Below, piece after piece: positions 45,982 through 46,576 of a stretch of 47,619 nt of DNA. Under the pieces are notes generated by a model, which saw nothing but the letters and a program-made list of their open reading frames with translations, had not been told where the DNA came from and did no database searches. Both the position numbers and the translations under genes were made by a program. The stretch spans positions 1 to 47,619 of the IMG/VR virus record IMGVR_UViG_2541047828_000005, one strand, 5' to 3'. Position 1 is the first letter of the stretch. Each line of letters starts with the position of its first letter. This DNA comes from a virus (Duplodnaviria > Heunggongvirae > Uroviricota > Caudoviricetes).

Positions 45982-46001
45982 TACTGTATATAAAAACAGT
46001 G
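45982..46001 (+). promoter_or_regulatory. LexA (SOS) box TACTGTATATAAAAACAGTG overlapping a promoter
   Basis: CTGT-N8-ACAG with AT-rich centre; 18 nt upstream of the ATG at 46020; TTGATC -35-like at 45959-45964. Confidence 0.65.
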
Positions 46002-46019
46002 TTTATCGGAGGGCAGATC

Positions 46020-46259
46020 ATGCACCGTCAGTCAGACATCAATCAGGCATTCCGCGAGTCGGTATTGCGCAACTCCAAAGGCTACCAGTACCTGCACACA
46101 AAGGATTTTGTGTCAGCGCTGCGCAGGCTTGGGCTGCACTTTACCGACGCAGAGGCTAATGCGTGGATATCTAGAGAGCAGACGTACTTTGTCGACAAAA
46201 CCACCGACCATAGCGAAAACCGTTTGTGGATGATGGCCAACATGGGGAGGGTGATCTAA
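46020..46259 (+). CDS. Hypothetical 79-aa protein, first gene of LexA-box unit
   Basis: GGAGGG SD 6 nt upstream of ATG 46020. Confidence 0.5.
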   Translation: MHRQSDINQAFRESVLRNSKGYQYLHTKDFVSALRRLGLHFTDAEANAWISREQTYFVDKTTDHSENRLWMMANMGRVI

Positions 46260-46576
46260 TGGGATTCCCTTCACCAGCGACGGACTACGTTGAGCAAAGG
46301 TTGTCTGTTAACTCGATCTGCAATGTCGGCCCAAACACGCTAGTTTTCGAGCGATCTGGCGGTTACGTTGTGCTGGATATCTCCCTGAAGCCAAAGCAGG
46401 GTAGTCAGGTTCTTATCCAGCACGGCGGCGGGACGGAGCTTGCCACGCTGAGAGGAAAGTCACTGATTACTGAAGATGGTGAAGCGATCGAGGGCGAAGC
46501 CCTGGACGATGTTACTGTCATCGGCGTCGTGACGTTTACTATCTGCGATGTTCGTTCCGATAATTCTATTATTTAA
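46259..46576 (+). CDS. UmuD'-like protein (S24-fold, begins at the position of the UmuD cleavage site; catalytic Ser apparently absent), 105 aa
   Basis: MGFPSPATDYVEQR matches UmuD residues 25-38 (GFPSPAADYVEQR); C-terminal VIGVV like UmuD VFGVV; SGDSM replaced by SGGYV; GGAGG SD; ATG overlaps upstream stop (TAATG). Confidence 0.6.
   Translation: MGFPSPATDYVEQRLSVNSICNVGPNTLVFERSGGYVVLDISLKPKQGSQVLIQHGGGTELATLRGKSLITEDGEAIEGEALDDVTVIGVVTFTICDVRSDNSII

Follow-up and report, generated by a model that had tools for sequence, protein, structure and literature searches.

Gene organization and operator

The window analyzed here, a 47,619-nucleotide (nt) stretch of the virus record IMGVR_UViG_2541047828_000005, carries near its right end a two-gene unit headed by a predicted LexA operator, or SOS box (Table 1). 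The first gene, open reading frame 1 (ORF1), encodes a small protein of 79 amino acids (aa), and the second, ORF2, encodes a 105-aa orphan protein resembling UmuD', the RecA-processed form of UmuD. The two genes overlap by a single base, which is shared by the ORF1 stop codon TAA (46257-46259) and the ORF2 start codon ATG (46259-46261) in the sequence TAATG (46257-46261). An initial annotation of this locus had described a near-consensus, LexA-controlled SOS box 18 nt ahead of a 79-aa ORF, the coupling of this ORF through TAATG to one of 105 aa, and the position of the unit between two tail fiber genes. The coordinates behind this description are exact, including the spacer between box and ORF1 (46002-46019, with the ATG at 46020) and the fiber gene on either side.

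The operator stands out clearly from the rest of the window. The box is the sole sequence in 47.6 kb that departs from the LexA consensus TACTGTATATATATACAGTA at no more than 3 positions, and none is found in 100 shuffles. It agrees with the consensus at 17 of 20 bases and with the operator of E. coli umuDC at 19 of 20. The looser pattern CTGT-N8-ACAG occurs at three sites in the window against 0.52 expected, and only the copy inside the box has an AT-rich spacer. The other two sites (24433-24448 and 28580-28595) lie within late genes and have GC-rich spacers, unlike SOS boxes, and are probably due to chance.

Similarity to umuDC extends well beyond the operator. A 63-nt segment spanning promoter and operator aligns locally with the E. 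coli umuDC promoter with a score of 47 (shuffles, 15.6 +/- 2.1), and both elements of the upstream region recur in E. coli umuDC, in the order ATTGATAGCC ... TATTGATCT ... box. The motif TTGAT(C/A) is also found at an equal distance from the box in phage homologs. In the window, TTGATC is followed after 17 nt by TACTGT, the first six bases of the box, an arrangement that makes a sigma-70 promoter with its -10 hexamer inside the LexA box plausible. A consensus promoter scan of the window did not flag this promoter, which was identified instead by its homology to umuDC. The 5' untranslated region (UTR), GG(A)GGGCAGATCATG, is similar to the one ahead of E. coli umuD (CAGGCAGATTATTATG), and in phage Kp4872-1 a near-identical 5' UTR is located immediately ahead of a UmuD'-like gene. 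Judged by sequence, promoter, operator and 5' UTR are all homologous to the umuDC promoter of E. coli, a relationship that is newly recognized here.

The box is also conserved among relatives. A CTG-N10-CAG box is present 30-42 nt ahead of the first gene in all eight phage homologs (8/8) and in 38 of 44 genomic homologs. It further precedes P1 humD and N15 gene 26, and the GenBank annotation of P1 names the site before humD a LexA binding site. Since the operator matches a proven LexA site and is conserved, we infer repression by LexA and induction by DNA damage, and the box would be expected to bind LexA. Control by LexA, as the initial annotation had it, thus agrees with the promoter homology and with the recurrence of the box.

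The UmuD'-like protein

ORF2 begins with MGFPSPATDYVEQR. Its first residues, M-GFPSPATDYVEQR, align with UmuD residues 25-37 and HumD residues 2-14, without a pro-segment, and 12 of 13 residues of this arm are identical to E. coli UmuD 25-37. No cleavable Cys/Ala-Gly site is present in ORF2, which starts at the Gly itself, and the codons before it are those of ORF1 in another frame.

What has become of the catalytic residues can be seen by aligning 43 sequences from phages, chromosomes and E. coli. In a long HumD class (123-129 aa) the loop is kept, with DSH, ATHY or CSHF replacing GDSM. In a short class of 104-109 aa, which includes 38 of the 43 sequences, UmuD residues 58-68 (GDSMIDGGISD) are deleted, and this 11-residue deletion takes out the Ser60 loop in all 38. 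The Lys97 position is occupied by Thr in the clade of the window; most other short members have a Lys or Arg one column off. Conservation among UmuD, HumD and the short class is highest in the arm, where G2, F3, S5, P6, A7, D9 and E12 are invariant. The short class is otherwise a separate and well-conserved lineage, with an invariant Glu31 and an ITxDGEAIEG motif. The loop deletion appears in this alignment as the defining mark of the short class (phrog_3469), distinct from HumD, and is new in this analysis.

With both the Ser60 loop and Lys97 lost, ORF2 is unable to cleave itself and has no need to. It is made in the already cleaved form, retains the S24 fold and can have no protease activity. 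The initial annotation had read ORF2 as a protease-dead, pre-cleaved mimic of UmuD' starting at the residue after the UmuD cleavage site, and the start at the equivalent of Gly25, the deleted Ser60 loop and the Thr at the Lys97 position all agree with this. It had also read the SGDSM motif as changed to SGGYV. The nucleophile motif is indeed lost, but the idea of a point-mutated motif has to be replaced by that of the deletion; in an ungapped HMMER register, Ser60 falls opposite Val37 of ORF2.

Family membership was assessed by profiles, alignments and structure. Among the PHROGs, ORF2 matches phrog_3469 ('UmuD-like protein') at 1.5e-46 and phrog_811 at 2e-11. Searches with tblastn recover the HumD-type genes of P1, P7, N15, phiKO2, HK639 and D6, whose products share 32-33% identity with ORF2 across 95% of its length, and the match to UmuD/UmuD' in the PDB (6e-5) covers residues 2-43 only. 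The S24 fold that had been anticipated for this protein is seen in its AlphaFold model, whose top Foldseek matches are UmuD'/UmuD (1ay9, 1umu, 1i4v, 8gmt; template modeling (TM) score 0.58-0.66, probability 1.0). The C-domains of LexA and lambda CI come next, and TM scores are 0.5-0.66 across the top matches. ORF2 is therefore modeled as retaining the S24 beta-fold.

Relatives of ORF2 fall into 2394 clusters, and some of these contain thousands of sequences from Klebsiella. The ratio of nonsynonymous to synonymous substitution rates (dN/dS) is 0.08 for ORF2 and 0.09-0.29 for ORF1, which indicates strong purifying selection on each and shows both to be real genes. Database labels for ORF2 relatives vary: NCBI PGAP mostly gives 'hypothetical protein', and PHROGs and some GenBank submitters already use UmuD-like.

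The first gene

ORF1 matches phrog_3893, a family of no assigned function, at 9e-40, and no match was found for it in Pfam, NCBIfam or the PADLOC models of defense systems. Its AlphaFold model is of high quality (predicted local distance difference test score, pLDDT, 91.5) and has the topology H-E-H-H-E-E (H, helix; E, strand). This order of elements fits the winged-helix arrangement H1-S1-H2-H3-S2-S3. Structural matches are weak (E >= 0.1, TM about 0.5) and mostly to winged-helix proteins, and helix 3 (ADANAWIxR) is conserved and non-basic. Given such a helix 3, protein binding by ORF1 would be at least as likely as DNA binding.

The family is large but narrowly distributed, with 865 clusters at 90% identity, all from Enterobacterales. 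A profile search of 1.84 billion representatives returned only 175 ORF1 relatives, all standalone and about 79 aa long. By sequence, ORF1 emerges as a well-conserved companion of HumD-like genes with no known relatives, a status recognized here for the first time, and it is probably an accessory factor of UmuD' surrogates.

Several more specific identities for ORF1 were considered and rejected. A DinI/ImpC-like protein is not indicated, since a tblastn search of the window with phage DinI gave a best E of 3.2 and Pfam and NCBIfam gave no match. An N-domain of LexA type is likewise not indicated (hhalign probability 0.6%, no PDB sequence match). Natural fusions of ORF1 to UmuD' (Rosetta stone proteins) were sought, and the longer matches, P0370, P0498 and P0467, turned out to be frameshifted reads. 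The flexible, conserved C-terminus of ORF1 (NMGRVx) might be taken to mimic the tail of E. coli UmuC (...LLRVK). However, the UmuC tails encoded by Klebsiella plasmids differ (SAKLA, VARF), and a second type of ORF1 ends in NPNGGx, which leaves mimicry a weak idea.

Public records of ORF1 contain some errors. The Midgardsormr38 record (extract 1501-2066) calls ORF1 'DNA polymerase V', a label that UniRef spreads to ORF1 relatives, and its UmuD'-like gene 'repressor protein CI'. In the mEp390 record (extract 2762-2998), ORF1 is left unannotated and a minus-strand ORF is annotated in its place.

Distribution and modularity

The commonest form of the unit, a box followed by ORF1 and a short UmuD'-like gene, is found in phages and prophages of Klebsiella, Enterobacter, Leclercia, Kosakonia, Silvania, Erwinia, Pantoea and Cronobacter. 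A one-base stop/start overlap between ORF1 and the UmuD'-like gene is seen at 36 of 44 genomic loci. ORF1 also stands ahead of long HumD-like genes, namely in HK140, at two chromosomal loci and in an IncY phage-plasmid, and the two ORF1 types combine with short and long UmuD'-like genes in all four possible ways. Either gene can occur alone. In HK225 (extract 1501-1800), ORF1 is extended to 99 aa and followed by a DNA invertase, with no UmuD'-like gene, and in Klebsiella phage Kp4872-1 (extract 1150-1515) the box and UTR lie directly before a short UmuD'-like gene, with no ORF1. Cronobacter phage JK004 (extract 946-1530) carries this SOS box too, with a short UmuD'-like gene, and its ORF1 slot is filled by an unrelated gene of 84 aa, which suggests a variable partner position. 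Exchange of the two genes can be seen directly in PDP110P2 (OZ035745.1). Compared with window positions 46020-46576, its ORF2 is 100% identical but its ORF1 only 79.7%, a contrast that points to recombination shuffling the two genes, with a junction at or near TAATG.

The unit is not confined to phages. ORF1 relatives, accompanied by a HumD-like gene, are found on >1000 plasmids, 945 of them conjugative, and IncX3 NDM plasmids are among these. In these IncX3 NDM plasmids (pNDM-HK3819, extract 2390-3140), half of the SOS box has been removed by ISKox3 and the HumD-like gene is truncated by IS26. The IncY phage-plasmid (extract 2390-3125) carries an intact unit, with a long HumD-like protein that has Met at the Lys97 position.

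Two other SOS genes are informative as neighbors. At 9 loci of E. coli and Enterobacter phages, mEp390 and HK225 among them, one LexA box serves both the unit and a divergent dinI gene; the boxes shared in this way have the ending ...ACAGTC and are located 41-42 nt ahead of ORF1. No dinI was found in the window by tblastn of phage DinI. No umuC was found in the window, nor within 4 kb at any of the 44 eight-kb genomic loci, which leaves the host or a plasmid as the source of any polymerase partner. Homologs of UmuC are encoded on at least 3616 Klebsiella plasmids.

Comparison with known systems

A LexA-controlled, genetically pre-cleaved orphan UmuD' carried by a phage has been known since 1999 in the form of P1 HumD, and the design as such is not new. 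Passages in two papers describe P1 HumD as 'an already activated, shorter version of UmuD' that is LexA-regulated and complements UmuD', both citing McLenigan 1999 (PMID 10559166) for HumD (PMC7092418; PMC9603915). The GenBank annotation of P1 likewise states that HumD functionally complements UmuD'. Like P1 HumD, N15 gp26, phiKO2 gp23 and the UmuD-like proteins of HK639/D6, ORF2 is a phage-borne orphan with an M-GFPSPA start at the post-cleavage Gly, and that group has in common with the window a LexA box 30-40 nt upstream and the lack of a linked umuC. Unlike these proteins, which are 128-129 aa long and keep the loop, ORF2 is 105 aa long, has a Thr at the Lys97 position and differs in its middle and C-terminal sequence (ITEDGEAIEGEALDDV). 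Its gene also differs from those of P1 and N15 in being preceded by ORF1, and the box in the window precedes ORF1 rather than ORF2 itself.

With E. coli UmuD/UmuD' (1UMU, 1AY9, 1I4V, 8GMT), ORF2 shares a predicted fold and a near-identical arm, GFPSPA[T/A]DYVEQR. In contrast to E. coli UmuD, it has no 24-residue pro-segment (no TFPLF motif), no cleavage site and no Ser-Lys dyad. At the level of the operon, the homologous promoter, operator and 5' UTR are accompanied by a further likeness, in that the first gene overlaps the second by one base in both cases (umuD/umuC in E. coli). However, the window has no umuC downstream, and its first cistron encodes an unrelated 79-aa protein.

A small extra cistron between SOS box and UmuD-like gene is a feature shared with impCAB, whose ImpC is DinI-like. 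Three-gene operons of the impCAB type, in which homologs of umuD and umuC follow a small gene, were reportedly described on plasmids by Lodwick et al. in 1990. That work is cited in passages of PMC11541004 and PMC7092418. Unlike ImpC, ORF1 is dissimilar to DinI (tblastn E > 3) and has another order of secondary-structure elements, and no polymerase gene follows. The DinI genes of lambdoid and N15-like phages encode modulators of the SOS response, are also LexA-controlled and also use this late-region slot next to att; the proteins are unrelated. One further locus, Gifsy-1 STM14_3218-3220 (PMC9879122), was considered as a related case and set aside as an unrelated locus in an immunity region.

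Proposed function

The explanation we favor, with moderate confidence, is that the unit is a two-gene accessory operon of the prophage, descended from a umuDC-type operon, that supplies an SOS-induced, HumD-like UmuD' surrogate acting on resident UmuC. In the lysogen, LexA would occupy the box, which overlaps the -10 element of a sigma-70 promoter homologous to that of umuDC. DNA damage would lead to cleavage of LexA and to a single mRNA from which both proteins would be made by coupled translation. A Met before Gly is expected to be removed, given the specificity of methionine aminopeptidase, and mature ORF2 would then start with the Gly of RecA-processed UmuD'. The protein would dimerize through its S24 beta-core, and the dimer would most likely engage a UmuC-type polymerase of the host chromosome or of a resident plasmid via the arm (GFPSPATDYVEQR). 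In this way translesion synthesis could be provided or tuned with no wait for RecA*-dependent processing, as has been shown for P1 HumD, and ORF1 would probably serve as an accessory factor that travels with such surrogates on phages and plasmids. The importance of the arm is underlined by an AlphaFold model of DNA polymerase V (Pol V), in which the UmuD' arm inserts beside UmuC's active site, and by the finding that armless UmuD' is mutagenesis-dead (PMC11791011).

A number of observations weigh against this explanation. In the same Pol V model, the C-terminal carboxylate of UmuC docks on Ser60, Thr95, Lys97 and Glu93 (PMC11791011). Residues of this docking site are deleted or changed in ORF2, and productive binding of UmuC may therefore be lost. 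The pocket residues of UmuD that contact RecA (Tyr52, Val54, Phe94, Asp91, Glu93) are not clearly conserved either. The AlphaFold model of ORF2 is of moderate confidence (pLDDT 69.7; core 77-85) and predicts a disordered arm. Against the NCBIfam HumD model (NF051876), ORF2 reaches E = 1e-12 and 48.2 bits where the cutoff is 120, as befits a relative but not an equivalog, and no match to Pfam PF00717 (Peptidase_S24) is obtained even at E <= 1, although the CI protein of the window scores 99 bits for S24 with the same Pfam library. The lone ORF1 of HK225 and the lone ORF2 of Kp4872-1 indicate that the two proteins need not act together. Finally, a UmuD' role with UmuC has been demonstrated for P1 HumD only.

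The loss of the docking site makes a decoy or inhibitor a serious rival, which we regard as possible though clearly less probable than a surrogate. A dominant-negative protein with arm and dimer core intact and the docking site for the UmuC tail lost could pair with host UmuD/UmuD' in dead heterodimers or occupy UmuC idly. The result, on the same tentative footing, would be suppression of Pol V mutagenesis, or of the UmuD2C checkpoint, while the prophage replicates. All 38 of the 38 sampled short-class sequences are without the Ser60 loop, the clade of the window is also without the Lys, and in the published Pol V model it is these residues that hold the C-terminal carboxylate of UmuC (PMC11791011). 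The gene is, moreover, never linked to umuC, and its separate, well-conserved lineage does not look like a decaying HumD. On the other hand, the docking site is taken from a computed model rather than a solved complex, and P1 HumD, the sole tested relative, promotes mutagenesis. Long HumD-like proteins, too, show decay of catalytic residues (Thr for Ser in N15 and HK140, Met for Lys in the IncY plasmid), and loss may thus reflect only a relaxed need for self-cleavage.

A broader version of this idea, which we likewise hold only tentatively, is that short UmuD'-like proteins and ORF1 together make up an unrecognized module of mobile elements that acts on the host SOS machinery in a manner unlike HumD. 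ORF1 might serve such a module as its own adaptor or inhibitor, for example, with the short UmuD' mimic as a decoy on Pol V or on RecA*. While a prophage is being induced or a plasmid is entering, this decoy may block or re-target the resident Pol V or RecA*.

Binding to RecA* is a further alternative and an improbable one. ORF2 would occupy the groove of the RecA* filament at the site used by LexA, UmuD and CI, much as DinI does, and would tune co-protease activity, SOS shut-off or the timing of prophage induction. In the UmuD-RecA structure, UmuD sits deep in the filament groove, and Phe26 and Pro29, which contact RecA, are both kept in ORF2. The divergent dinI on the same LexA box in E. coli and Enterobacter phages fits this role, as does the CI of the window, which has intact HTH and S24 domains and hence depends on RecA*. 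However, the UmuD residues listed above, which belong to the pocket and an acidic patch and have been shown to be important in binding RecA, are not clearly conserved, and the N-terminal Phe18, Leu21 and Gln23 are absent from ORF2.

Still less likely, to the point of being very doubtful, is a split repressor or antirepressor, in which the winged helix of ORF1 and the S24 core of ORF2 would form a two-piece regulator of LexA/UmuDAb type, or ORF2 would poison the oligomerization of the C-domain of the phage CI. The winged-helix-like topology of ORF1, the gene boundary, which coincides exactly with the UmuD cleavage site, and the structural proximity of ORF2 to the C-domains of lambda CI and LexA all lend themselves to this reading. 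Yet ORF1 is dissimilar to LexA or any solved protein, its putative recognition helix is non-basic, and natural ORF1-ORF2 fusions were not found, the apparent ones being frameshifted reads. Carriers of the unit also include phage-plasmids of the P1 and N15 types and IncX3 plasmids, whose immunity systems are unrelated, and an antirepressor is not required where, as in the window, CI can cleave itself. A non-functional remnant of a captured umuDC operon would account for the deleted catalytic loop, the absent umuC and the scores below family thresholds, but it is the least credible explanation of all in view of a dN/dS of 0.08-0.29 for both genes and of thousands of intact copies across genera with conserved length, start overlap and operator.

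Mobile elements that carry a ready-activated, or deliberately dead, subunit of Pol V can change how fast damaged cells mutate. The unit is present in thousands of Klebsiella prophages, and carbapenemase plasmids of the IncX3 type carry relatives of it. Activation of resident UmuC by the short class, if the surrogate explanation holds, would bypass the RecA-dependent delay on error-prone synthesis, with a bearing on the evolution of antibiotic resistance under quinolone stress. Should the short class inhibit UmuC instead, it would be a phage-encoded anti-mutator. The conserved and unannotated ORF1 offers an inexpensive and concrete target in the search for a new SOS accessory factor.

Prophage context

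The window is a Klebsiella lambda-like prophage together with its left host flank. At the left end (1-2489), host DNA gives way to an integrase gene, which identifies a prophage with its attL-side flank, and the two-gene unit is placed at the opposite, attR-side end. After CII come DnaB, NinG and Q, and then the late genes through to the tail fibers at the right end. The nearest phage records are Wanchaivirus/Lambdavirus PDP110 and the Klebsiella phages RothC and RothD. Scanning the window for Rfam families and tRNAs gave no matches.

Table 1. Positions of the two-gene unit, its predicted control elements and other landmarks of the window.
Feature	Position	Strand	Basis or remark
Upstream promoter region: ATTGATAGCC (45939-45948) and -35 hexamer TTGATC (45959-45964)	45939..45964	+	Shared with E. 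coli umuDC; putative function
LexA (SOS) box TACTGTATATAAAAACAGTG	45982..46001	+	Predicted operator
Shine-Dalgarno sequence of ORF1, GGAGGG	46008..46013	+	6 nt before ATG
ORF1, 79 aa, winged-helix-like fold, phrog_3893	46020..46259	+	Profile match, AlphaFold model
Shine-Dalgarno sequence of ORF2, GGAGG, inside the 3' end of ORF1	46246..46250	+	8 nt before ATG
ORF2, 105 aa, short HumD-like subfamily, orphan UmuD'-like	46259..46576	+	Profiles, alignments, Foldseek
Pectinesterase-like host gene	1-1284	-	
Lambda-type integrase	1422-2489		
CI with helix-turn-helix (HTH) and S24 domains, intact	11826-12536		
CII	12976		
First tail fiber gene	42402-44945		
Second fiber-like gene, Gly_rich_2 domain	46588-47619		

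The two fiber genes are related at their N termini, where 101 aa are 57% identical, and diverge completely beyond. The second begins 12 nt past the ORF2 stop codon with no terminator between, and SOS transcripts may consequently run on into it. Between the first fiber gene and the unit (44957-45913) lie a 250-aa ORF, which belongs to phrog_4390 and has no assigned function, and a 64-aa ORF with no family match.

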